Of a stretch of 64,000 bases of DNA, positions 41,494 through 53,544 are shown in pieces. The stretch lies in the NCBI GenBank assembly GCA_965208105.1, contig OZ242318.1, forward strand, positions 4,640,001 through 4,704,000. Reading direction: 5' to 3'. Source of the stretch: Candidatus Latescibacterota bacterium (GTDB taxonomy: Bacteria; Latescibacterota; UBA2968; UBA8231). How positions within the stretch are numbered: the stretch's first letter is position 1; each line of letters opens with the position of its first letter. The notes below the pieces were generated by a model. The model searched no databases, was not told the origin of the DNA, and saw nothing but the letters and a program-made list of their open reading frames with translations. Both the position numbers and the translations under genes were made by a program.

Positions 41494-43669
41494 CTTCCAG
41501 ATTTTCGGGGTTGCTCCTCAGACCATCCCCGGTTTCCTCCAGTCCACCTGTCTCACCTCGCAAGCGCTGCATCAAGGTCGTGTAGCGCAATGCCACTGCA
41601 TCGTTTTCCACAGCCAGGTTGAGCGCCTTTTGGGTTCCAACCACCACGATCATCTCTTTTGCCCGCGTGAATGCGGTATATAGAAGGTTGCGCTGCAACA
41701 TCACATAGTGCTGCGTAGTCAGCGGCATGACCACCACTGGAAACTCTGAACCCTGTGCCCTGTGAGTGCTGATCGCGTAGGCCAGGGTCATTTCGTCCAG
41801 TTCGGCAAAATCGTAGCTCAGAGAACTGTCAAATTTTATCCTCATCTGCTGTTCATCCATGTCCAACCCGGCGATTATTCCCGTATCGCCGTTGAAAACT
41901 CCCTTGTCGTAGTTGTTCTTGACCTGCATCACTTTGTCTCCCACCCGAAGCTCCACGCCGCCATGATTGTAGGACTGACCATGGGGGTTGAGACGCTGTT
42001 GGAGGCGCAAGTTCAAATTGACAGCCCCGGTCTCACCACGGTACATGGGGGTAATCACCTGAATGTCGCGCATGGGGTCATGGCCGCGGCCCGGCAACCG
42101 GCGGGCGCACAAATCCTCGATCAGTTCCGCGGACCGGGCGGGGTCTTCCTCTTCCAGGAAGAAAAAGTCCGATGCCTCCCTGTTGCTGATTGAGGGCGGC
42201 TCTCCGCGGTTTACCCGGTGAGCGTTGAGAACAATCTGGCTCTCCCGGGCCTGCCGGAAGATTTCTGTCAATCGCACCACTGGCACGGTTCCGGAGGCGA
42301 TAATGTCCCTGAGCACGTTGCCCGGACCCACCGAGGGCAGCTGGTCTATGTCTCCAACAATCACCAGATGGGCGGTATCGGGAATGGCCTGCAGCAGAGA
42401 GTGCATCAAGGCTACGTCGATCATGGAGGCTTCGTCGACTATCAGAGCATCCACCTCCAGACGGTTGTCGTAGTTCTTTCGGAATGCTCTCTCGGCGGGG
42501 ATGAACTCGAGGAGGCGGTGGATGGTCCTGGCCTCCCTGCCCGTGGCCTCGGCCAGGCGCTTGGCCGCCCTACCAGTAGGCGAGCACAGGGCGACCTCAA
42601 GGCCTTTGGACTCGAACAAGGCGAGGATTTCTCTTGTTATGGTGGTCTTTCCCGTGCCCGGGCCACCAGTCAGCACGATTACCTTTTTCCTGGCCGCCAG
42701 GCCTATGGCCTCCCACTGGCTGGGAGACAATTGCAGGCCTTCTCCACTACCGGTGTGGCGGGGGGAATCGAGCTTGACCGCGGCCGGTGTCCGCAGCAGG
42801 CGCTTGAGGGAGGAGGCCAATCCTACCTCGGCGTAGTAGAGCGGTGGCAGGTAATAGCGCAAGTCCTCTTTGGAGATTCCGTCGTCGGCTCGCAGGGTTT
42901 CCAGTGCGGGAGGAAAGAGTTCCGCGTTGACCCCCAGAATGTCCTTGCACTGTTGCATCAGGACCTCAACCGGCAGAAATACGTGGCCTTCCTCGGATCC
43001 CCGGACGAGCAGGTATCGCATTCCCGCCTGAATCCTCTCCGGGGCGTCCGCGGCCAGACCCATGTTCCTGGCGATCCGGTCGGCGATCCGGAAGCCGATT
43101 CCAACAATATCGCGCTCCAGGCGGTATGGATTCTCCCGAACCCGTTGGATCGCTTCCTGGCCGTACTGTTTGAATATCTTGACTGCATAGCCGGTGGTGA
43201 TCCCATGCGACTGCAGAAAAACCATCACGTCCTTGATCCGGCGCTGGTCTTTCCAGGCCCGTGCGATCAGGTCCACCCGGCTTTTGCCCAGTTTGTCAAC
43301 CTCGAGAAGGCGGTATGGGTCGGCATCGATGATCTCCAGGGTCTGGGCGCCGAAATGCGCCACGATGCGCCTGGCGGAAACGGGTCCTATGCCCTTGATC
43401 AGGCCTGATCCCAGGTACTTCTGAATGCCTTCAAGAGTCGAGGGGTGGACCTGCCTGTAGCTCTCGATTTTGAATTGGCGGCCGTACTTTGGATGGCTTA
43501 CCCAATCTCCATCTACTTCGATGGTCTCCCCTTCCTTGAGGGCCGCCACCGAGCCCACCACGGTAATCCGTTCCCGCTTGCCCTCGGGTACAAGGCGAGC
43601 GATCATGTACCCGCTTTCCTCGTTGAAATAGGTAATCAGGTCAATACAGCCCTTGATGGATTCGCTCAT
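41474..43669 (-). CDS. recD2: ATP-dependent RecD2 DNA helicase
   Basis: 'HPKYGRQF', HhH 'IKGIGP', Walker A 'GGPGTGKTT', 'VDEASM', 'QLPSVGPG' and 'HRAQGSEF'. Confidence 0.95.
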   Translation of the reverse strand: MSESIKGCIDLITYFNEESGYMIARLVPEGKRERITVVGSVAALKEGETIEVDGDWVSHPKYGRQFKIESYRQVHPSTLEGIQKYLGSGLIKGIGPVSARRIVAHFGAQTLEIIDADPYRLLEVDKLGKSRVDLIARAWKDQRRIKDVMVFLQSHGITTGYAVKIFKQYGQEAIQRVRENPYRLERDIVGIGFRIADRIARNMGLAADAPERIQAGMRYLLVRGSEEGHVFLPVEVLMQQCKDILGVNAELFPPALETLRADDGISKEDLRYYLPPLYYAEVGLASSLKRLLRTPAAVKLDSPRHTGSGEGLQLSPSQWEAIGLAARKKVIVLTGGPGTGKTTITREILALFESKGLEVALCSPTGRAAKRLAEATGREARTIHRLLEFIPAERAFRKNYDNRLEVDALIVDEASMIDVALMHSLLQAIPDTAHLVIVGDIDQLPSVGPGNVLRDIIASGTVPVVRLTEIFRQARESQIVLNAHRVNRGEPPSISNREASDFFFLEEEDPARSAELIEDLCARRLPGRGHDPMRDIQVITPMYRGETGAVNLNLRLQQRLNPHGQSYNHGGVELRVGDKVMQVKNNYDKGVFNGDTGIIAGLDMDEQQMRIKFDSSLSYDFAELDEMTLAYAISTHRAQGSEFPVVVMPLTTQHYVMLQRNLLYTAFTRAKEMIVVVGTQKALNLAVENDAVALRYTTLMQRLRGETGGLEETGDGLRSNPENLEVTAADA

Positions 43670-43699
43670 CGGTTTCCTGGGGATTTTTACAATGAAAAT

Positions 43700-44302
43700 T
43701 CAGGCCGAGAAGATTCCTTCAATCCACAGGGTCAGCCCCAGAATCAATCCCGTCGCCACCCCACCCAAAAGGGCTCCCGCCGCCACCTGTGCAGCAGTAT
43801 GGTAGCCGAGGCGCAGGCGGGCCCATGCCACCAGCGGCAGTGCCGGGGCAAGCGGCCACATGCCCGTTCCTCCGGCAAGCCAGAGGATCAGGAGTCCACC
43901 TCCCACTCCCGTTGCATGGATGCTGATCTTCCAATGTCTGTTGATCATCCATACCAGAAACGTGTTGCAGAAGAACGCACATCCCGCACCGATCAGGAGA
44001 CCAGGTGCGCCTAGCAGGAACAGCAATAAACACCCGAGGAAGTAGCAGATTGCTCCCAGCAGCAGCAGCCGCCCTCTTTGATTCCCATCACTTGGGTAGA
44101 GGTGGTCAATGTAGCCGGTTCGCCGCAGACGTACCAGTATGATTCCGGGAAGGATGGAAAAGAGCAGTACTCCCGCGCTACCCGCCGTCCATGCAGCTTT
44201 ATCAAGCCAGGTCAAGCCTGCGAACACCACCAGCCCGACCATGGATGGATTCAACGCGTGGGAAATCAGGTGGGCCAGTTTGTCGAGTCGATGGGGATGC
44301 AT
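43700..44302 (-). CDS. PAP2-superfamily membrane protein
   Basis: About 6 TM helices, with 'WKISIHA' (C2-like) and 'WARLRLGYHTAAQV..G' (C3-like). Confidence 0.65.
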   Translation of the reverse strand: MHPHRLDKLAHLISHALNPSMVGLVVFAGLTWLDKAAWTAGSAGVLLFSILPGIILVRLRRTGYIDHLYPSDGNQRGRLLLLGAICYFLGCLLLFLLGAPGLLIGAGCAFFCNTFLVWMINRHWKISIHATGVGGGLLILWLAGGTGMWPLAPALPLVAWARLRLGYHTAAQVAAGALLGGVATGLILGLTLWIEGIFSA

Positions 44303-44308
44303 CCCCTC

Positions 44309-44737
44309 TCACCTGGACCATTTCTTCCCGCTGGCTGTCCCCTTGTCCACCGCTTTCTTCTGACCGTCGAGGAGAAACCCGACAAACCGTTTCTCTCCCA
44401 AGGTCTTGAGGTAGGACAACAGTGAAACTTCGGCTTCCTTGCGGTTGAGTTGGTATTTCTTGCCCAGGGACTCGATCATCTTGCCGACCGGGGTGCGGCC
44501 GTTGCACATCTGCCAGACCTCGGTGCCCACTTCATCCAGGGTGATCTTTCGCTCTTTGGGGATATAGAAGACTTTGGAGAGAATGCGGACTTTCCAGGTG
44601 TCCTGACGGCGTATCGTGATCTGCACTTCGCCGTCTTCGTTGGCTTCCCAATCTAGCGCCTCATTGCGTGCCGGCCGTGAAGCCAGCATGGCTTCGCGGC
44701 TCAGCTTCGGTTTTCTTTTCGTGGCAAAAATACCCAT
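44309..44737 (-). CDS. stand-alone PqqD-family / RiPP recognition element (RRE) protein
   Basis: 'ITLDEVGTEVWQMCNGRTPVGKMIESL...EAEVSLLSYLKTLGEKRFV' is the PqqD wHTH consensus (LxxxGxxVWxxxDGxxTV..I...L). Confidence 0.82.
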   Translation of the reverse strand: MGIFATKRKPKLSREAMLASRPARNEALDWEANEDGEVQITIRRQDTWKVRILSKVFYIPKERKITLDEVGTEVWQMCNGRTPVGKMIESLGKKYQLNRKEAEVSLLSYLKTLGEKRFVGFLLDGQKKAVDKGTASGKKWSR

Positions 44738-45671
44738 TGATCACCTTTTGGACTAGATCGCCGGCTTTGTCTTTTTTGCGGTACAGGTGGTCGACAATAC
44801 AGATTTTATTGGCCTGCTCGCAGTGCCAGACTCTGCTGTCCAGGTACTGACGGGGGCGAGGATTGATAAGCGGCAGTGGCCGCAGAAGCTGGCGCCAGCG
44901 ACTCCGCGGCCGTCCCTCCACCCGCAGACCTTCATGCGAAGCCACCTCCTCTGCAGCGACGTCATAATTGAAGTCGCGCAACTGTTTTTTAAAGAAACTT
45001 GGATACCAGTCAATGAGGGTGGTGTGCTTGAGCAGCATGGCGGCCATGCTCAGGCGCTGGACCCGGCACACTTGCTTCCCCCGCTCGAAGGACAGCTGGA
45101 TGTGGCCCGACTTCAACTCGTGCCCATTGAGCTTGAAGTCGACCGGCGTGAAGAATTTCAGTCCATAAATACTCCAGAAAAGATGATCGTTGCGGGGGTG
45201 GTCCTGCAGCGAACGCAATACGGTTCCGACCACCTCCTCAATATTCTCGCGTGGCTTGCAGAGGAGGCGAACGAGAACGACCCGGCCGCAGTCCCTGCAG
45301 GCTCGGGCCAGATTGTAGGCGCGGAAGTCAGCATCCCAGGTGAAGGTCTCGTAATCGCTTTCCTCCAGCCAGGTCTTGTCTCTGAGGAACCTGGCGCGGC
45401 GCTTGATGGAAAAGGAGGTGCCTTCTTTTCTGGCTTTTTTCTCCAAGCTCTCGGCGTATCGGTCGACGATCTCGGAGACCCCCAGACTTCCCCTTGCCTT
45501 CCCTTTGCCCTCGCGCCATTCGATCTCGGCGCGCACGATCTCGGCATCGTCGAGGCGCGCGTAGCCGCTCTTGTAGTCCCCGCTTACCCTTCCAAGGTTC
45601 CAGTCCTCGGGAACCCGCAGATAGATTCCCTGCCAGCCGAAGTCCGCCCACTTTGTCGGTGCAAGGGTCAT
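44661..45671 (-). CDS. hypothetical protein, two PsbP/Mog1/DcrB-like repeats (putative)
   Basis: Internal repeat 'WQGIYLRVPEDWNL...KSGYARL' / 'IYGLKFFTPVDFKL...KSGHIQL'. No signal peptide. Starts 4 bp after the OPT gene. Confidence 0.6.
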   Translation of the reverse strand: MTLAPTKWADFGWQGIYLRVPEDWNLGRVSGDYKSGYARLDDAEIVRAEIEWREGKGKARGSLGVSEIVDRYAESLEKKARKEGTSFSIKRRARFLRDKTWLEESDYETFTWDADFRAYNLARACRDCGRVVLVRLLCKPRENIEEVVGTVLRSLQDHPRNDHLFWSIYGLKFFTPVDFKLNGHELKSGHIQLSFERGKQVCRVQRLSMAAMLLKHTTLIDWYPSFFKKQLRDFNYDVAAEEVASHEGLRVEGRPRSRWRQLLRPLPLINPRPRQYLDSRVWHCEQANKICIVDHLYRKKDKAGDLVQKVINGYFCHEKKTEAEPRSHAGFTAGTQ

Positions 45672-45675
45672 GGAC

Positions 45676-48075
45676 CTAAAAGATCAGCACCGACACGGAC
45701 TTCTGGATCAGCGCCACGGCAATGGAAGCCATGCCCATCAGCGCCATGCCGCAGGCAAATCCCACCGCCAGGATCGGGGCGTACTGGCGCCATTGCTTTT
45801 TGCCGTACTTGTTCCAGAAATAGTAGCGGGCAAGCAGGGCCCCGACCATCTCGGTGACGAAGAAGTGGGGGATATGCGTCAATGCCCGGACGTATCCGAA
45901 AACCAGCAGGATTGGCAGGCCGAATATGGACAGGAGAACATAGGAGACCAATCCGATACCCACGCCGAGAATGATGATATCGCGCTTCATGGCGCGGAAG
46001 AGCCAGGGCTCGTCGGTAGAGCGTTGGATCCACGGGCTGGTGAATTGGGGATCGGTGTCTACTTCGAAGTAATAGATCCAGCCCTCGGGCACGGTTTCCA
46101 GGGAGAGGACCCGGAGTGTGGGTTTGGGACTGCGCATGATTTCCTGGTCAGCTGCCGGCGCAACTGCCTTTATCGGGGGTCCGGTCGACGGGGCGAGAAT
46201 CTCCTGCGCCATGGCTCCGGCGGGCCGCTCGGGGATCACATCGGGCTGGCCTTCGGCGAAGTAAGTGAAAAAAGCCCGTTTCTCCGTCCAGGGGCCGGCC
46301 TCCCCGCGCTTGCCGGTGCTGTCCAGCCATTCCCGGTCGACCAGACGGGCGCGCCAGTACCACCACTCGTTGGCAGTCAGGTTGGCGGGCGTCCAGGCAA
46401 TGTCCTTTCCGTCCCGGGAGATCTCCAGGTGGCTGCGCATCGTCCCGGTGTACCAGATGCACAACTGGTATGCCCGCAGGCGCCAGATCAGCTGGGCGTA
46501 AGGGTAGGAAGCCGATGGCACCGGAGCCAGTTTCCAGATATAGGACCCGTAGAGGAAGGTGGCTCCCAGGACAATGGGAATCATGAACATTTCGGCCTTG
46601 ATGATGCTCGTGAACCTGGTTCCGGTCAACTCGATTTCGCGGAACTTCTGGGTCATGGCGCCGTAATTGCCCAGGGGAAAGGGAATGAACCAGATGCTCA
46701 CCCCCTGGTACCCGGAGAGAATTATCGTGGCTTCGCGCACGAAGGGAATCTCAACCGTCTGTCCAACCATCCCCACCAGGCGGGCGTTGACGAAGGATTG
46801 AAAGGGTGTGAAGATGAACCCGAAAAACAGAAAGAACCAGATAAAGTGGCTGAACTCGGGCAGGAGGGCCCAGGCAATCGCGATGAGGCCGGCGGTTCCG
46901 GCAATATAGAAGCTCAGCGCAACCCATATCGGGAAGTCTCCACGGCCCTCGGGGGCTTTGAAGCTGCGCTCCCGTCCCTGGGCCTTTTCAAGGGACGCGG
47001 TGCGCAAACTTTGAACAACCTGATAGACTCCGATCAGGGCGATGGCGATAGTGGTTCCGATGCCGAAGCTCATCCAGAAGTCCACCTGATTGACAAAGAA
47101 GGTATCTACCGTACCCATGCCTGGCTGCCACGTGGACAGATATCCCGCCTCGTAGAGAAAGGGATTTACAATGGAATGTACCACCACCCCGAGGAAGGTC
47201 CCCATCACCGCCCAGAAGGGCATTACCAGCCCGGTGAAGATGGGGCCGAGATGGGCGGTGAATCCCAGCGGAGTGGCGGGGATGAAATTCCCGGTTACCT
47301 GGGTGAAGTCGACGAAGGGAATGGGGATCAGCTGAATGGGCTCGGTCAGCAGAGCGCCGCTGATGGCCGGAATGGCCACGTATATGGCGCCGAATACGAG
47401 ACCGATCATGGCGCCTGCGGAGAACACCCGCCAGCGCCAGCTTTCCAGTCCCTGGGTGGTCTCGGCCAGCGCCGTGGCCCCCTGTGCGGCCACGGGTGCA
47501 AATGGGAACGGCAAGCGCTCATAGTCGGAGTTGACCCGAAACAGGATGTAGGCCATGGTAAACCACAGGACCCGCGAGATTACCATGCCGGCGATCATCA
47601 GCGCGATGGGCACTGCCCAATCGCGGTGGAAGAAGGTGCGCAGCACCAGGGCTTCCGAATCGTAGGAAGGGGCCCACCAGGTAGGGATCAGTTTCGTGAG
47701 TCCGAATTGCTTGGCCGCGGGAGACTGCACCAGGTACTGGTTCCAAAGAAGTCCCTCGAAGACCCCGGTCTCGGCGGCGATCAGGCCTGCCGCCACGTAG
47801 TAGAGGAGGTAGACTTCCTGGCGCCTGAGGGTGGTGAACGAGCGCTTGATGACCTCGGCGAAGAGGATGATCGTGACCCATTCGGCCGCTGCCCCGAGTG
47901 AGCCTCCGACCATGAGACTGAGGTACATGTTCCCGGGGATCATGACGAAGGCCACGAACAGAACCCCGAGAACTGCCTTGATGGTAAACCCCTCCTCGAA
48001 TTGAGACGGGGTTTCCATCAAGTCGCGGTATTCTTCAATCTCTTCGTTTGGGTTGGTCTTCTTGCGTCCGAGCAC
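45676..48075 (-). CDS. OPT-superfamily-like peptide transporter with inserted soluble domain
   Basis: 'GFTIKAVLG...PGNMYLSLMVG' and 'ERLPFP' match OPT family motifs. Many TM helices and a ~140-aa hydrophilic insert near the C-terminus. Confidence 0.72.
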   Translation of the reverse strand: MLGRKKTNPNEEIEEYRDLMETPSQFEEGFTIKAVLGVLFVAFVMIPGNMYLSLMVGGSLGAAAEWVTIILFAEVIKRSFTTLRRQEVYLLYYVAAGLIAAETGVFEGLLWNQYLVQSPAAKQFGLTKLIPTWWAPSYDSEALVLRTFFHRDWAVPIALMIAGMVISRVLWFTMAYILFRVNSDYERLPFPFAPVAAQGATALAETTQGLESWRWRVFSAGAMIGLVFGAIYVAIPAISGALLTEPIQLIPIPFVDFTQVTGNFIPATPLGFTAHLGPIFTGLVMPFWAVMGTFLGVVVHSIVNPFLYEAGYLSTWQPGMGTVDTFFVNQVDFWMSFGIGTTIAIALIGVYQVVQSLRTASLEKAQGRERSFKAPEGRGDFPIWVALSFYIAGTAGLIAIAWALLPEFSHFIWFFLFFGFIFTPFQSFVNARLVGMVGQTVEIPFVREATIILSGYQGVSIWFIPFPLGNYGAMTQKFREIELTGTRFTSIIKAEMFMIPIVLGATFLYGSYIWKLAPVPSASYPYAQLIWRLRAYQLCIWYTGTMRSHLEISRDGKDIAWTPANLTANEWWYWRARLVDREWLDSTGKRGEAGPWTEKRAFFTYFAEGQPDVIPERPAGAMAQEILAPSTGPPIKAVAPAADQEIMRSPKPTLRVLSLETVPEGWIYYFEVDTDPQFTSPWIQRSTDEPWLFRAMKRDIIILGVGIGLVSYVLLSIFGLPILLVFGYVRALTHIPHFFVTEMVGALLARYYFWNKYGKKQWRQYAPILAVGFACGMALMGMASIAVALIQKSVSVLIF

Positions 48076-48097
48076 GGGACGGCTCCTCCCTTTCCCT

Positions 48098-51000
48098 TTA
48101 TGCTGTTATCTCGGTGCGTTCGCCTGCCAGGATCTGCCCGCCCTGCTCCCTGTAATTTTCCTTGGCCTCGGCATCCACAGTGCGCCAGATTAGAAACTGT
48201 TTGCGGATTACGTTCATGAAACGCTGGTTCACCCGGCGCCAGGAGGCATCCTCGCCGCTGAGGCGTTTGATCTTCAGGGTGATGGTGTAGATTTGGTGTT
48301 CGGACTCAGGGGTGGCGTGGAACACCACGTTCTGGCTCACTCCCAGGTCGAAGGGAGCCAACCAGATATTCATGTCGATGATGTAGCCTTCCCCGTCATC
48401 GGTTTCGAAACGCCGCAGATTGGCGCCATCGGTGTAGAAGGTGCCGATGGATTCCTCGCTGTAGGAGTCGAAGTAGCCGATGAGAAAGACGCAAAGCCCC
48501 AGCACCTCGTGGCCGCTGACCGTGAATGGAAAGTCGAAGTTCCACTGGTCTCCCTGGGGAGGAGGAAGTTTCCACCTACGGGTCACGTCCGGGACCGCCA
48601 TCTGGGAGGCCTTGCGGGCGGGATAGATAGTCGACAGCATGACCACGACCATCACCAGTATACAGGATGTAACCGCTGCCAGGGAAGAGTAGTTGAGGGT
48701 AAAGCCGGACAGCAGGTCCAGCACTATGAGCCCCTTGGCGATCATTTGTCCTGCGAGGTATCCGGCCACCACCCCGAGGACCGAATATACGCAGGACTCG
48801 GCAATGAAGAGCCATGAGATGTGCCGGGGAGCCAATCCCACCGAGGAGTAGATGCCGATCTCGCGGAATCGTTCGTAGACGCTGCCCATCATGGTATTGA
48901 GGACGATGAGCGATGCGATCAGGATGGGGATGAACAGGTTGGCCAGGCCGGAAAACGAGGTCAGCCCGAGGGAGCTGTAGATCGACACTTTGATATACTC
49001 GTCCCCTTCTTCCCTGATCCCGGCGAACAGGGTGACGGCCAGACGGGATATGAACTCCTCGATCTCCCTGCGCTCGTCTATCCCTTCGTGGAAGCGAACC
49101 GCCACCGATTGCAGCGGGTTGCCGCTTCCCACGTTGCGGAGGGTGTGGTAGGGGGTGATGAGAATGTTGGCCGGCTCCAGGTGGACGAACGGCTTGATTA
49201 TCACCTTGGCATCTTCCAGCCCCTGCTTTTCGCGCTCTTCCTCCTCCTCGATCTCCTGTACGGCCTGCCCCCCGGTTACGGCGAAGTCGGCCGGGGTCAT
49301 GATCTCGTCGTCCAGGTCCTTGAGATCCTTCATGCGCTTGGAGTCGATGACCCCGATCACGGTGAAGTGTTCGCCGAAGACGCGCACTCGTGCGCTTCCC
49401 ACATCGGCCAAATCCAGGTTCAGGTTGTCCGCTCCTATCATGTCGTTTGGCAGGATGCACACGTTCTCTTCGCCGGGTCGAAACCACCTGCCCGCCACCA
49501 ATGCCCGATCCATTCCGGTAACTTCCTGTTCAGTGGGAGTCAATCCCAGAACTCCCAGGGCGTTGTGGGAGCGGGACCCGTGCTTGATCTTTATGTGGGC
49601 TTTCTCCTTGTTGGTATACCAGCTCCGTGGTGCGATGGCCGCGATTTCGTGGAAGTTGCTGTTGGCGTATTCCAGAACCGATTCTTCCAGGGGAAGCCAG
49701 GCTTTGCTGCGTATCAGGAGTCCTTCATAGAGCCCCTCGTTATCGCGTTCGATCTGGTTGAAGCGCAGACCGGTTTTGATGGAGGTGAAGGAGAGTACGG
49801 TGAATGTGAGAAGAAGAAGGGTGGCAAAGGTTAGGGCGGTTCGCGTCTTGCGGCGTTTCATGTTGGAAATACCCAGTTGAAACGCGGTCATCGAGGCGCT
49901 GGAGCGGCTCACGTCGGTATCGTGAATGACGGCCACTTCGGTTCGCAGCTTCTTCATCTGCTCGTTGAATCGGCCGGAAATTATCCACATTACCAGGACT
50001 GCCAGGGCGAGAATCACGAATGCGAGCAGGATAACGAAAGGGTTGGAAAGCTGGAAGGCGGGATGCACTTGCCAGAGGATTATCCAGATCACCAGGAAAA
50101 CCCCGACGAATCCGAGGATTTGGTTCTTTATGGTGGCGGCGGTGATAAGGAGGCGTTCGGCGAAAAAAGCGCAGGGGATGACCAGGGCCATGAAGAAGAT
50201 GATTCCCTGGATGACATCGTTTTGGGTCGATTTTACGTCCGGATAAGCGCGAGATTCAAGGCCGATGGCGGAGCGGGTATGGCGCACGAAGTCGCTCCAT
50301 TTCTTCTGTCCCAGGGCCGCCTCCGCGGCATCGAGCTCCACCTTGGCGCGGCCATGAAGGTTGTTGAGCCGCTGGTTTTCAATTGCGAAACTCTTGAGCT
50401 CCGCCATCCGCGCTTCATCCAGGTTCCACATGTCCCTTGCGGTCAGGAACGAAGTCCTGGCAAAGGAAGTCTCGGAGTCGATGGCGAAGCCGGCGCCCTC
50501 GGCGGCGTCGATGTCCATGTGGGTCCCGGCATTCAGCAGCAGGGAGCGAAAGCCCAGGATGCTTGCCCCGAAGCCCATCTTTACCTGAGTTCCGGGACGC
50601 GCGAAGAGCACCCCGACGGGCTCGTCCTTGGACGAGGGTCCCTCCCCGATGGTGTAGCCGTATTCAACCGGGGCGCTGTTGCTCTCGTCGAAAACGCTGA
50701 CCGTGGACAACTTGGTCAGATAGCGGGGATCGACAATGTCGTAGAAATTGTAGGCCTCGCAGGGGAAGAGGATCACCATCCACTCTTTGTCGCGCCAATC
50801 CATTTCGATCAGCATGGGGTAGGTCTCGTCGCCCTGCACGCCGCGGTCGGGAGCGTAGGTGATTTTTCCCGTGATCGGATCCATGTAATAGCCTTCGATC
50901 TGCAGGTTCTTGACGCGAATCCGATTGACGTAGAAGGTTCCGTTTTCGTCCACTGTTTCGAAGTACTCGCCGCGCACCCCCTTGTAGGATTTTTTCTTGC

Positions 51001-52855
51001 CGTTGCGCACCACGGCCACGGTTTCCGTTCGCGGCAAATCCGGTACGATACTGCGTCGAGGAAAAACCATTGTTTTTCCCCTCAGGGTGCGAAGATTATC
51101 CTTCAGACGCATTTTGAAGTCGGGAAAGAGCTCCGGGTCTTCGAAAGCCATGTGGAACATTCCCGCGAGCATGCGGATTTGCTTGGACAAATTTGTGAAG
51201 TTGACCCGGTCGGCCTTGTCCAGAGGCGTATCCACCAGGAATCGGGCGTCGTTCACCGTCACGAAGGCCAGGGCCGGAGTGCCGGCGTCGAGGACCAATT
51301 CGCTGTTCACCGAAATTTCCCCGGGTACGAATGTTTCCCAGCTCATCCCGCCTTCGGGGCTGATGCCGTTTATCAGCACGTCCTTGGGATTGTAGCCCAA
51401 TTCCCGGCTGATGAGGCGGGCGTAGCCAATGAAATTCTTTCCGAAGGGAGCGAAGTAGCGTTTGTAGTAGAAGCTGGTGTTGCTGTTCCACACCCCCAGT
51501 TCGTCGGTCTGCGAGGAAAGGTCCAGGCTGACAAAAAGCTTGATATCGAGAGAATCGACCTTGGGATTCACCCAGGTCCGATATAGATCCAGCTTCAAAC
51601 TCTCGTCGTCGATCAACTCCTCCAACAGATCCTCCTGGGTGGCGAAACTGTCCTTTTGAAACAGCAGGCGCCCCCCTTCCCTGCGCACGATGCCTTCCTC
51701 CAGGCTCGCGTTCAGCACCTCCGCAACCAGCGCAGTATCCCTGTCGGTGGCCGCGCTGCGTACCAGGGCTTCCTTGCCAAGAAATTCTTCACGACCCACC
51801 CGATAGTACACGCCATCCTGATCGATTCGGCCCTGGGCCAGCGCCGCTTCCACCGTTCTGCGAATCAACATGTGGTCTACGAAAGGGTCCTCCTTGCGCA
51901 GATAGCGCTGGATGAAATCGTCGACCCCGCGCAAGCCCAGGTGGTGGGCGGAGGTGGCCAGGAAGATGACGCTCCGCGCCGGTGGGTTGGCCTGAAAATA
52001 ACGCGCTAATTCCAGAAGAGCGGTGATGCCGGAGGCTTGCTCGGCGCCGGGAGCGAGCGCTGGAACCACCGACATGGCGTCGTAGTATGATTCCAGAACA
52101 ATGACCTCGTTGCGCAGGAGTGGATCATAGCCCGGGATGGTGGCGAAGATATTCCATGCCGGCCGCCGCTCCCAGTCCATGCGGTATTCCATCCGCACAT
52201 CCACTGGACCGGATGCGGCGATTGCCTCCCGTAGACTTTCACCGTTCAGTTTGGAGATCCAGAATCTGGGGATGTCGAGAGGCATGGTGAGAAACTTCTT
52301 TTCCCCCTCGAGGTAAACCGTTGAATCAGGTTCGACAAAGAGGACGGCAGAGGCTCCTAGGTAGGCGCTGTTGAGCCAGTTGTCTCCCGAGTTGAAGTCC
52401 ATCAAGACGATGGCGTCCTCGATATCCTGGCCGTCCATGTCGGAGAATTCCCCCGAACCGGCATCGATGATTCTTCCCCGCAGCCCTCCCTCGGGCAGAG
52501 TGGAGGTCTTCACCAGGTTGGGCCAAAGGCCATGGAGGGGAAAACCTTCGTCCTGGCCGACAATTTTGAGGAGGCCGCCTTGCTCAAGGGGAATCGAGAT
52601 GTCGTATTCCTGGACGGTGATCCCCTTCAGGCCGATATCGCGGAATGCTTTCTGAATGTGATGTGCTGCCTTCTCGGCCCCGTCATAGCCGGATACCCGG
52701 GACCCCAGGCTGGCGAAAAACTCCATACTGCGTTCCAGACGTTCCTCCGGCGCCGTATTCCTCAGCGCGTCGAAATCTACGGCAGCGTCTGCAATAGTCG
52801 CGTCGAGGCAACTTATGAGCCCCCACAACCATAAGCTTGCCAGGCGCCTAATCAT
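48098..52855 (-). CDS. PA + M28 peptidase-like domain fused to MacB/FtsX-type permease (~1585 aa)
   Basis: Signal peptide from the ATG at 52855. M28 N-terminus 'SRVSGYDGAEKAA', PA-like 'IIDAGSG...IVLMD' and M28 core 'SGITALLELARYF'. MacB TM1 'NMKRRKTRTALT' and FtsX 'VYERFREIGIYSSVG...IYPARKAS'. Confidence 0.85.
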   Translation of the reverse strand: MIRRLASLWLWGLISCLDATIADAAVDFDALRNTAPEERLERSMEFFASLGSRVSGYDGAEKAAHHIQKAFRDIGLKGITVQEYDISIPLEQGGLLKIVGQDEGFPLHGLWPNLVKTSTLPEGGLRGRIIDAGSGEFSDMDGQDIEDAIVLMDFNSGDNWLNSAYLGASAVLFVEPDSTVYLEGEKKFLTMPLDIPRFWISKLNGESLREAIAASGPVDVRMEYRMDWERRPAWNIFATIPGYDPLLRNEVIVLESYYDAMSVVPALAPGAEQASGITALLELARYFQANPPARSVIFLATSAHHLGLRGVDDFIQRYLRKEDPFVDHMLIRRTVEAALAQGRIDQDGVYYRVGREEFLGKEALVRSAATDRDTALVAEVLNASLEEGIVRREGGRLLFQKDSFATQEDLLEELIDDESLKLDLYRTWVNPKVDSLDIKLFVSLDLSSQTDELGVWNSNTSFYYKRYFAPFGKNFIGYARLISRELGYNPKDVLINGISPEGGMSWETFVPGEISVNSELVLDAGTPALAFVTVNDARFLVDTPLDKADRVNFTNLSKQIRMLAGMFHMAFEDPELFPDFKMRLKDNLRTLRGKTMVFPRRSIVPDLPRTETVAVVRNGKKKSYKGVRGEYFETVDENGTFYVNRIRVKNLQIEGYYMDPITGKITYAPDRGVQGDETYPMLIEMDWRDKEWMVILFPCEAYNFYDIVDPRYLTKLSTVSVFDESNSAPVEYGYTIGEGPSSKDEPVGVLFARPGTQVKMGFGASILGFRSLLLNAGTHMDIDAAEGAGFAIDSETSFARTSFLTARDMWNLDEARMAELKSFAIENQRLNNLHGRAKVELDAAEAALGQKKWSDFVRHTRSAIGLESRAYPDVKSTQNDVIQGIIFFMALVIPCAFFAERLLITAATIKNQILGFVGVFLVIWIILWQVHPAFQLSNPFVILLAFVILALAVLVMWIISGRFNEQMKKLRTEVAVIHDTDVSRSSASMTAFQLGISNMKRRKTRTALTFATLLLLTFTVLSFTSIKTGLRFNQIERDNEGLYEGLLIRSKAWLPLEESVLEYANSNFHEIAAIAPRSWYTNKEKAHIKIKHGSRSHNALGVLGLTPTEQEVTGMDRALVAGRWFRPGEENVCILPNDMIGADNLNLDLADVGSARVRVFGEHFTVIGVIDSKRMKDLKDLDDEIMTPADFAVTGGQAVQEIEEEEEREKQGLEDAKVIIKPFVHLEPANILITPYHTLRNVGSGNPLQSVAVRFHEGIDERREIEEFISRLAVTLFAGIREEGDEYIKVSIYSSLGLTSFSGLANLFIPILIASLIVLNTMMGSVYERFREIGIYSSVGLAPRHISWLFIAESCVYSVLGVVAGYLAGQMIAKGLIVLDLLSGFTLNYSSLAAVTSCILVMVVVMLSTIYPARKASQMAVPDVTRRWKLPPPQGDQWNFDFPFTVSGHEVLGLCVFLIGYFDSYSEESIGTFYTDGANLRRFETDDGEGYIIDMNIWLAPFDLGVSQNVVFHATPESEHQIYTITLKIKRLSGEDASWRRVNQRFMNVIRKQFLIWRTVDAEAKENYREQGGQILAGERTEITA

Positions 52856-53025
52856 GAGATGTACCTTCCCGGTGAGAGCAGTGGGCAGATTCGGTCCCGT
52901 GTGAATGTTCGGTGTAAATATAAGCAAATGGCATCAAGGTTCCACTGCCAGGTAGAGAGGCATCGCATCCACCCGGGAGATCTCCGGATTCTGGAAATCC
53001 ATCACCGGTTCCCCGGTTAGCGGTC

Positions 53026-53544
53026 CTATTGCTCAAGCCAGCCATTTGCGCGCAATTTTCCAAGTGTCCAGTAAACAAGCAGGCCGATGAGTATCCCGCT
53101 CGCGAGACCCGTGGCAAGAAATATGGGCAGGAGGAAGAACAGGGAAGCGTGGCCGATGTAAAGGTAGGCCAGGAGCAGTTGGACAGATTGATGAATCAGA
53201 GCACCCAGGGCACTCAGGCCCACGGGGCTGAATAGTTCCGGCTTACTTTTGAAAACCCCTGCCATTACGGCGAGGCTGGCCATCCCCGCGCCCCCGGCGA
53301 TTACGAATGCAGGTCCTCCCAGACTCCCGCTGATCAGCCCGCCCACAAGCAGCTTGATGGCGCTTACTCCCAGTGCGGCGAGAAAGCCGTATACCATCAA
53401 TGCGAGCAATACTGCCAGATTTCCCAATCCCAACTTCATCCATGGCAGGGGCCTCGGGACCAGTGATTCGAAAACGAACAAGACCAGAGCGGCGCTTCCA
53501 AATAGTCCCAGCCGGGTGAGATCCCTGGCGGAAATAGAATTCAT
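53026..53544 (-). CDS. Gx transporter family / heptaprenyl-PP synthase component I-like membrane protein
   Basis: 'LFVFESLVP.PLPWMKLGLGN' and 'FSPVGLSALGALIHQSVQL'. Confidence 0.82.
   Translation of the reverse strand: MNSISARDLTRLGLFGSAALVLFVFESLVPRPLPWMKLGLGNLAVLLALMVYGFLAALGVSAIKLLVGGLISGSLGGPAFVIAGGAGMASLAVMAGVFKSKPELFSPVGLSALGALIHQSVQLLLAYLYIGHASLFFLLPIFLATGLASGILIGLLVYWTLGKLRANGWLEQ

Follow-up and report, generated by a model that had tools for sequence, protein, structure and literature searches.

The window analysed here comprises 64,000 nucleotides (nt) of contig OZ242318.1 (assembly GCA_965208105.1, positions 4,640,001 to 4,704,000 of the forward strand) from a Candidatus Latescibacterota bacterium, and contains between positions 43700 and 52855 a row of five adjacent genes, A to E, which an earlier annotation made without database searches (hereafter the sequence-only reading) had taken for one operon encoding a peptide-handling system. 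Coordinates are window positions unless marked as belonging to the window's genome (G000) or to another locus (L numbers). All five open reading frames (ORFs) were confirmed on the minus strand, and both their coordinates and the spacings recomputed from these (22, 4, -77 and 6 nt for A/B, B/C, C/D and D/E) reproduce the earlier description. Gene A (48098-52855) encodes 1585 amino acids (aa) from an ATG, or 1609 aa from a TTG 24 codons upstream, and combines a large exported domain with a MacB/FtsX-type permease. It is followed by B (45676-48075, 799 aa), a polytopic membrane protein probably of the OPT/YSL fold, C (44661-45671, 336 aa), a cytoplasmic protein with a tandem PsbP/Mog1 fold, and D (44309-44737, 142 aa), a PqqD/RRE-like protein with a conserved basic N-terminal extension. 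The last gene, E (43700-44302, 200 aa), encodes a divergent membrane protein of the PAP2 superfamily and is a syntenic neighbour of the others. The other four genes, A to D, are linked in a conserved manner in Latescibacterota and Poribacteria.

This linkage was followed in two scans, one of species-representative genomes with A as the query (64 loci) and one of metagenomes with the alignment of B (80 loci). Families were mapped on six-frame ORFs with hidden Markov models and phmmer, a crude form of gene calling, and only loci with enough flanking DNA were counted; these loci are related and do not represent independent samples. The loci retrieved with A were labelled Latescibacterota, 'Gemmatimonadetes' and Poribacteria, with single loci assigned to Planctomycetota, Aminicenantes and Verrucomicrobiae. 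Where at least 1 kb of downstream sequence was available, B came directly after A in 51 of 60 loci retrieved with A, and in the scan with B, A was the gene immediately preceding B at 59 of 61 loci. C and then D come after B in 46/49 A-retrieved and 19/54 B-retrieved loci, and D follows C in all 65 loci (46+19) that have C after B and enough sequence downstream. The nine A-retrieved loci without B comprise four in which A is fused to a protein of the family DUF6785 and five with no B at all; in the four fusions, A-type proteins of 2118-2122 aa carry both DUF6785 and DUF6784. A separate DUF6785/6784 gene is found directly upstream of A in 22/54 A-retrieved and 29/36 B-retrieved loci.

The order A-B-C-D is kept in Poribacteria at identities of 39-41% for A, 40-42% for B, 27-30% for C and 32-35% for D. 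At such divergence it does not reflect recent shared synteny, as the neighbourhood of E can. The prediction of a conserved gene set was borne out for at least A-B-C-D. It is accordingly extremely improbable that we are dealing with unrelated neighbours kept together by recent common descent only. E does behave in this manner, and much of the wider synteny is limited to close relatives, but Poribacteria and loci of the L145/L153 type retain the order of A to D although their proteins are only 27-41% identical, fusions of A with DUF6785 exist, and C and D overlap or abut throughout; for A to D this explanation is already contradicted.

The window's genome carries a second A-B pair, consisting of A' (1480 aa, 43-45% identical to A; G000 498755-503197) and B' (882 aa, 43% identical to B; G000 496110-498758). 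A DUF6785/6784 gene lies next to this pair, which has no C, D or E paralogs, and no DUF6785 gene adjoins A in the window. Beside A', B' and their DUF6785 gene stand two genes for paralogous proteins of 950-970 aa (L073:1-2862 and L073:2958-5870; G000 488001-493870). Both show weak SlpA_C beta-barrel matches below the cut-off, at least the second has an N-terminus resembling a signal peptide, and the two may be outer-membrane proteins. In yet another paralog of the A type, with 68-69% identity, the gene that comes next encodes a UPF0182 membrane protein and not B (L035:14801-17620, L036:14813-17647, L046:14831-17665; G000 3025566-3028388).

In some lineages the set is larger, and includes genes that the five-gene system of the sequence-only reading did not contain. 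A seven-gene operon with the order DUF6785/6784, A, B, C, D, mini-FtsX, and an ATP-binding cassette (ABC) ATPase of the LolD type was found in L153, a locus from a metagenome, and in L177, L178 and L180, which come from three genomes belonging to two further Latescibacterota families (another locus, L179, is cut short). An ATPase-type ORF also follows D in all four Poribacteria loci. An ATPase of the LolD/MacB kind, for which the sequence-only reading had suggested to look, does therefore travel with the genes in these lineages. The protein that we call mini-FtsX has 200-230 aa in the operons and corresponds to an FtsX without periplasmic domain, a loop of ~43 residues taking its place. In the window's genome the corresponding pair is located at G000 3,034,690-3,036,182, 1.65 Mb from the window genes. 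Its mini-FtsX (3035487-3036182) is an FtsX-only protein of 231 aa. Its ATPase (3034690-3035484) shares 70% identity with those of the operons, against 51-55% for the runner-up among the ATPases of this genome. Among NCBIfam models, those scoring best with this ATPase are LolD (236 bits, cut-off 308), MacB, DarD, YbbA and FtsE, and those scoring best with mini-FtsX are lolCE and MacB, in all cases below the cut-off. The genome has 65 ABC_tran matches, of which the nearest lie ~38 kb before the start and ~14 kb after the end of the window. The ABC ATPases found 3 kb from A'B' were considered as partners and rejected, a divergently oriented gene lying in between and the ATPases not being orthologues of the operon ATPase. 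As separate observations, the UPF0182 gene of the window's genome lies ~6.3 kb from the mini-FtsX/ATPase pair, and a gene with a PilZ domain (E 7e-10) directly follows the operon ATPase in one metagenome locus (L153:11166-11588).

The distribution of the parts was examined in 121 genomes of the phylum. A was detected in 107 of them, C in 102 and mini-FtsX in 101, with all three present in 96 genomes and a mixed pattern in 12 (completeness 57-91%). In the remaining 13 none of the three was found, and all belong to one family, f10 (0/13; completeness 64-97%), from which it follows that the system is dispensable within the phylum. Mini-FtsX is single-copy in every genome having it, and so is C except in one genome with two partial matches on separate contigs (G075). 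A gives 1-9 matches per genome. In three further genomes (G003, G031 and G035), C and mini-FtsX share a contig and lie no more than 1-2 kb apart.

The protein encoded by A begins with a probable Sec signal peptide (residues 1-24, 52784-52855, minus strand; MIRRLASLWLWGLISCLDATIADA), read from the sequence by eye, and its homologues begin at the equivalent ATG. The ectodomain (residues 25-878, 50222-52783, minus strand) comprises a PA-like and a remodelled M28-like region, then ~320 conserved residues. Three hydrophobic helices identified in a Kyte-Doolittle scan (residues 879-965, 49961-50221, minus strand) would bring the chain from the outside to the cytoplasm, where a linker leads to the first transmembrane helix (TM1) of a MacB/FtsX module (residues 1006-1420, 48596-49840, minus strand). 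This module consists of TM1, a periplasmic core domain (~1027-1294) and TM2-4, its hydrophobic segments spanning residues 1006-1026, 1298-1327, 1346-1373 and 1385-1416. The chain ends in a conserved cytoplasmic domain of 165 aa (residues 1421-1585, 48101-48595, minus strand). Such a layout fits the topology of MacB, with the start of TM1 and the tail both inside, plus an exported arm in front. In Pfam, the module matches MacB_PCD (residues 1006-1192, 28.5 bits, just above the cut-off of 27) and FtsX (residues 1308-1419, 56.2 bits against a cut-off of 25.5, E 4.5e-15), and MacB_PCD is also present in the Poribacteria and DUF6785-fused forms of A. The tail gave no Pfam or PADLOC match when scanned alone, its family conservation averaging 0.56-0.78 per 50-residue block. 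There are more than 1800 homologues of A, annotated only as FtsX-like permease or M28 peptidase in metagenome-assembled genomes.

For the arm, Pfam reports Peptidase_M28 at residues 235-316 (51908-52153; E 1.6e-9), which covers profile positions 1-78 of 193 only. A profile built from 18 A proteins matched, among PDB sequences, M28 aminopeptidases with a PA domain (2ek8 and 6hc6, the latter being YwaD; E 1e-15 to 1e-14), with which it aligns over the PA domain and the first half of M28, as well as the permeases MacB, LolC, LolF and YtrF. Weaker matches were to Nicalin and the transferrin receptor. The Nicalin match is no evidence of a special kinship, being no closer than that to ordinary M28 enzymes. 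Relative to M28 aminopeptidases, the ectodomain contains an insert of ~110 residues in addition to the ~320 further residues. It does not show the canonical M28 zinc ligands and catalytic Glu (His, Asp, Glu-Glu, Asp/Glu, His). When A is aligned to YwaD, the zinc His is replaced by Y257, the bridging Asp by E272, and the Glu-Glu pair by H304-H305. Among 105 members of the family, Y257 is conserved in 102, D259 in 105, E272 in 102, H304 in 103 and H305 in 76 (the others having F). Since these replacements are nearly invariant, the site appears to be remodelled and still in use rather than dead, and the label of 'pseudo-peptidase' given in the sequence-only reading could not be established.

The membrane module of A has a match in PADLOC, to the model PDLC01991 'CARF_m8--CARF_LolE_TM' (E 5.6e-55; 48098-49084, A residues ~1258-1562). 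Across A, A' and the forms from Poribacteria and L177, the membrane modules match this model with E-values of 1e-49 to 1e-59, and they also match PDLC01990 'CARF_Beta-galactosidase_LolE_TM'. This shows that the A-type membrane module exists elsewhere under another label and, judging by the names of the models, also with a beta-galactosidase-like arm. One might conclude that A is a signalling-controlled membrane effector related to a CRISPR-ancillary 'CARF_m8 - LolE_TM' protein, its tail sensing a nucleotide and switching the membrane module, and the PilZ gene (a family that binds cyclic di-GMP) after the ATPase in L153 would agree with signalling. Yet the 156-aa tail scanned alone matches nothing in PADLOC or Pfam, the PADLOC match spans transmembrane helices and the periplasmic module with no identifiable CARF part, and no CRISPR or defence genes were noticed in the loci, in which no scan was aimed at them. 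We regard such an effector as very improbable.

B matches no Pfam family and has no usable match in the named clusters of the ESM Atlas. Its structural model, a low-confidence one obtained with AlphaFold2, points to the OPT/YSL fold. At a predicted local distance difference test (pLDDT) of 57, the only Foldseek matches of this model with E<0.001 were to the barley transporter YS1 (7wst, 2e-6, and 7wsr, 2.5e-5), the next match having an E-value of 0.078; the corresponding TM scores are 0.39/0.50 for 7wst and 0.42/0.53 for 7wsr. B also contains a beta-rich insert of 150 residues (residues ~545-690). A second line of evidence passes through the DUF6785 family. An hhalign comparison of this family with 13 OPT proteins of the phylum gave a probability of 74% (E 2.8e-5, 464 columns), and B aligned to the DUF6785 family with a probability of 40% (E 3e-4); a smaller comparison of 17 B with five DUF6785 sequences had given 6%, and larger alignments raised this to only 40%. 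The N-terminal helices are common to B and DUF6785, as is a segment reading 'ERLP[FY]P'. Because DUF6785 aligns both with OPT and with B, the two are probably divergent branches of the OPT superfamily, and B is probably of the OPT/YSL fold. The composition given in the sequence-only reading largely stood, with the OPT identity of B on weaker ground.

No canonical OPT protein above cut-off was detected in the window's genome. The uncharacterised membrane family DUF6785(+DUF6784) is represented there by 25 full-length paralogs, none of them in the window (for example G000 493925-496117, 3559510-3561897 and 1679120-1681102), and looks like a greatly expanded importer family. The neighbourhoods of these paralogs are varied and, read by eye, look catabolic, with genes whose starts resemble oxidoreductases, amidases and dioxygenases.

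C belongs to a family with 745 cluster representatives at E<=1e-3, among which 0 of 90 members scanned matched Pfam; one distant relative is labelled Armatimonadota. The AlphaFold2 model of C (pLDDT 91.5) is a tandem of two PsbP/Mog1-type domains, each an alpha-beta-alpha sandwich, as the PsbP-like label of the sequence-only reading had anticipated. Foldseek matched it with probability 1.00 to TplEi (two domains), PsbP, CyanoP, BT_1490 and Mog1, at 9-14% identity. C has no hydrophobic segment, and six residues are near-invariant in the family (C125, C128, H158, C284, C316 and H317). D passes the Pfam threshold for PqqD (residues 64-119, 39 bits against a cut-off of 23.4, E 1e-9), as does its Poribacteria homologue (49.7 bits), and the NCBIfam models nearest to it are PqqD-type chaperones of ribosomally synthesized and post-translationally modified peptides (RiPPs), all far below their cut-offs. 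The N-terminus of D is kept in 25 homologues. This bears on the overlap of C and D, where the same 77 nt (44661-44737) encode, in two frames, the C-terminus of C containing the invariant Cys-His and the basic, conserved N-terminal residues of D. As this extension of D is conserved, the overlap represents real dual coding; it is common to most Latescibacterota loci, and in Poribacteria the two genes abut.

Among the pairs of the locus, C+D was modelled as a complex. The prediction scored 0.47 against 0.00 for the best of three controls, with a contact agreement across runs of at least 61% and a partner pLDDT of at least 70. The mark set for such predictions was reached by 58/80 solved complexes and 2/110 mismatched pairs; with scores of 0.60 or below, only 7 of those 80 complexes reached it, as did both of the mismatched pairs that passed. 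The support from this score is weak, and we take the prediction as mild support for a C-D complex because the pairing of the two genes is strict in genomes.

The presence of D raises the question whether the locus serves the export, or the sensing and detoxification, of a ribosomal or antimicrobial peptide by a module of the BceAB or MacB kind, with D as a leader-binding RRE. D is indeed a member of the PqqD family whose nearest NCBIfam models are RiPP chaperones, the FtsX-type permease has a large outer domain, and the ATPase is similar to LolD, DarD and bacteriocin types. However, D is far below the NCBIfam cut-offs and is missing from most A-B pairs, and no RiPP precursor or modifying-enzyme family was found among the eight window genes scanned with Pfam. 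Neither in these genes nor in the seven-gene operons was a radical-SAM, cyclase, protease or other maturase family found; the other ORFs of the operons are unlabelled by family models, and no precursor gene was noticed, small ORFs not having been searched systematically. OPT-family proteins, moreover, are known as importers. This explanation therefore appears quite improbable.

The gene E, which the sequence-only reading had counted as a component, behaves differently from A to D. Its Pfam match to PAP2 is weak (14.5 bits against a cut-off of 27.2). Of 19 homologues aligned, all but one give a PAP2 match with E<=1, the best being 6.5e-6, and a profile of E matches G6Pase and LpxE among PDB sequences with E-values of 0.1-0.6 only. 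S127, H129, R162 and H168 are invariant, and the final Asp position reads Q172; we take these residues to correspond to the catalytic His/Arg motifs of PAP2. E is found within 4 kb of D in 36/40 A-retrieved and 7/8 B-retrieved loci and directly next to D in 15/40 and 1/8, respectively. D and E are separated in many relatives by a flagellin-like gene of opposite orientation (L011:18598-19758, L023:17953-19116, L026:18636-19832, L053:18711-19910 and others), and the displaced E stays directly upstream of RecD2. It was not detected in Poribacteria loci, in L145/L153-type loci or in the loci with seven-gene operons. Undetected in distant loci, travelling with RecD2 and often separated from D, E was rejected as a member of the system and is probably a local syntenic neighbour.

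The co-directional run extends beyond the five genes. Upstream lie a NusG_II gene and a Gx transporter gene (Hpre_diP_synt_I), with a gap of 170 nt before A, and the RecD2 helicase gene follows 30 nt downstream of E. This wider synteny (NusG_II, Gx transporter, RecD2, SDR) is largely common to close relatives only. Scans for consensus promoters and terminators gave no more than chance would (6 with 4.6 expected, and 14 with 13.7 expected) and are uninformative on the ends of the operon. Contigs of 178-983 nt from metatranscriptomes, 95-99% alike to the window and with a depth of 2-5, were found in two libraries (marine and sponge) of two studies, covering stretches of A and B in one (X1) and of A-D in the other (X2). 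They indicate that a close relative is present in marine and sponge habitats (window 43600-53100), and establish neither expression nor co-transcription of A-D.

Taken together, we consider it about an even chance that A-D are the window's share of a larger system, in which a type VII (MacB/FtsX/LolCDE-like) ABC mechanotransducer is joined to membrane proteins of the OPT fold. Mechanotransmission by type VII ABC transporters is established background, their work being done outside the membrane, and the control of hydrolases by FtsEX systems is well documented. The composition of the system and its energy coupling by an ABC ATPase are well supported; its substrate and the direction of transport are guesses. 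The mechanism would start with an ATPase dimer driving the FtsX module of A, mini-FtsX probably being, as gene content suggests, the second half of a transmembrane dimer with A, as LolE is for LolC. ATP binding and hydrolysis would then move the periplasmic core domain of A, and with it the PA/M28-like ectodomain of 850 aa. More speculatively, the ectodomain might bind or trim an extracellular peptide, protein or cell-wall peptide at its remodelled metal-type site (Y/D/E/H/H), B, and DUF6785 where present, might act as secondary carriers that take the product through the membrane, and the cytoplasmic pair of C, with its Cys/His cluster, and D might receive the peptide or regulate the carrier.

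Several results weigh against this joint ABC/OPT system. No ABC ATPase is encoded within the 64-kb window, and only orthology and co-occurrence assign the distant mini-FtsX/ATPase pair to A as its partner. As related genomes are not independent, the phyletic pattern counts essentially as a single absence (f10), by which the link is supported and left unproven. C-D is missing after most metagenome A-B pairs (35/54), showing that the list of parts varies by subtype, and the RRE protein D would thus be an accessory of one subtype rather than a defining part. Some A paralogs stand alone or precede UPF0182 (5/60). None of the gene junctions is bridged by 31 nt among the RNA-library contigs listed, in which DNA carry-over is possible. 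The OPT membership of B is challenged by scores below the cut-off with the OPT models TIGR00728 (19.1 bits against 128) and PF03169 (cut-off 25.8; 17.8 bits for B and 19.8 for B', the match being confined to the ~90 C-terminal positions, 529/534-622 of 623), by an hhalign probability of 2% with the 13 OPT proteins, by the lack of any match (0) of the B profile to PDB sequences, and by the low confidence of the AlphaFold2 model (17 sequences, pLDDT 57, predicted TM score 0.48). The second half of M28 and its last two ligands are not significantly alignable in A (E 42 or worse). Against a peptide substrate, a related profile in PADLOC carries a beta-galactosidase label. The 'three independent peptide-binding folds' of the sequence-only reading were an over-reading, PsbP/Mog1 being a general protein-interaction fold and the place of B among OPT proteins being weakly founded.

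The main rival explanation is remodelling of the cell envelope. A, mini-FtsX and the ATPase would then form an FtsEX-like complex whose M28-like arm acts on the stem peptides of peptidoglycan, and the peptides released would be recycled by B and DUF6785 and processed by C and D on the cytoplasmic side. The documented control of hydrolases by FtsEX speaks for this, and a LysM motif is present in the poribacterial A (E 2.3e-9), albeit in the Poribacteria form only. Further, no FtsX or FtsE above NCBIfam cut-offs was found in the window's genome, the mini-FtsX/ATPase pair ranking among the best of the weak matches there; almost every genome has C and mini-FtsX in one copy each, as would be expected of a housekeeping function; and genes for PAP2 (a family of lipid-carrier phosphatases) and flagellin lie nearby. 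On the other hand, A, C and mini-FtsX are unfound in 13/13 f10 genomes, which are up to 97% complete, the multiple copies of A (1-9 matches per genome) are unusual for a division factor, and the locus yielded no match to families of peptidoglycan enzymes such as amidases or EnvC-like proteins. Envelope remodelling seems to us unlikely.

Returning to the ABC/OPT system, a more specific form of it can be conceived, which we hold to be doubtful. One single-copy motor (mini-FtsX and the LolD-type ATPase) would serve interchangeable surface arms, namely the A paralogs, and every arm would have an OPT-fold carrier of its own, B or DUF6785, to which it is docked. The arm of the window type is peptidase-like, and the names of the PADLOC models suggest a beta-galactosidase-like arm in relatives. 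The result would be an ABC/OPT hybrid for nutrient capture in Latescibacterota and Poribacteria, with one subtype possessing a PsbP/PqqD pair that takes the captured peptide in the cytoplasm. One motor serving many arms would follow the same logic as TonB-ExbBD with its many receptors.

Full-text literature searches returned no characterised system of this composition, in agreement with the sequence-only reading. They found no article mentioning DUF6785 or DUF6784, and no relevant description of an FtsX/M28/PqqD system or of FtsX in Latescibacteria; for mechanotransmission with MacB and M28, type VII ABC with OPT, and CARF with LolE, no description was seen among the matches listed. What is new is an unprecedented peptidase-like arm fused to a type VII ABC permease, together with a partner permease devoid of an outer domain and companions of the OPT fold. 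Type VII ABC systems (MacB, LolCDE, FtsEX, YbbAP) do mechanical work outside the membrane, and here the arm is a peptidase-like domain of 850 aa. OPT-fold proteins are normally stand-alone secondary carriers, and here they are conserved companions of an ABC-type permease. If the parts form one complex, this would imply a coupling between an ABC mechanotransducer and a secondary transporter. It would also provide the first functional setting for DUF6785/6784, for the tandem-PsbP family of C and for a non-RiPP PqqD, in a system present in most sampled genomes of a poorly known phylum without cultured model.

When compared to known systems, the core of A qualifies by its sequence features as a type VII ABC permease, because it has those of FtsX and MacB_PCD, and belongs to no named subfamily, as all NCBIfam scores are far below cut-off. 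In FtsEX, which with EnvC, PcsB, RipC or CwlO is described as a type VII ABC system activating extracellular hydrolases, a permease of the same four-helix FtsX type and an FtsE/LolD-like ATPase likewise do their work outside the membrane on a hydrolase-like domain. Here, in contrast, the M28/PA domain is fused to the permease via a signal peptide and three extra transmembrane helices, a second, domain-less FtsX, linked OPT-fold proteins and the PsbP/PqqD pair are added, and the FtsX/FtsE scores are far below cut-off. LolCDE has the same combination of two different FtsX-type permease genes with one LolD-like ATPase, LolC and LolE forming a heterodimer. It differs in that LolC and LolE carry a periplasmic domain where mini-FtsX has a loop of ~43 residues; all scores are below cut-off, and no LolA- or LolB-type partner is seen here. 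MacAB-TolC shares the MacB_PCD and FtsX architecture with A, which matches MacB structures in the PDB, and YbbAP-TesA is described as pairing such a transporter with a hydrolase. Neither a MacA-type adaptor nor a TesA-type partner was detected in the locus, the ATPase is unfused, and the ectodomain and partner proteins are different.

Among OPT/YSL transporters, the model of B significantly matches only barley YS1 (7wst and 7wsr), and DUF6785 aligns with OPT over the 464 columns; unlike them, B fails the Pfam OPT threshold, carries the 150-residue beta-rich insert and is tied to an ABC-type partner. D passes the Pfam threshold of the PqqD/RRE proteins, but no RiPP enzyme or precursor was found linked to it, and it is invariably paired with the tandem-PsbP protein. 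With the PADLOC models PDLC01991 and PDLC01990, compared by model names only, the whole membrane module aligns (A' residues 744-1425 to profile positions 30-656 of 810), the difference being that no CARF part is recognised in A. Nicalin, a non-enzymatic subunit, and the transferrin receptor have non-catalytic M28-like ectodomains, and the canonical Glu-Glu pair is missing in Nicalin as in A. The PA-domain M28 aminopeptidases (YwaD 6hc6 and 2ek8) have the same order of PA and then M28 (E 1e-15 to 1e-8), from which A differs by its conserved Y/E/H/H set, the insert of ~110 residues, the ~320 residues that follow, and the fusion to an ABC permease.

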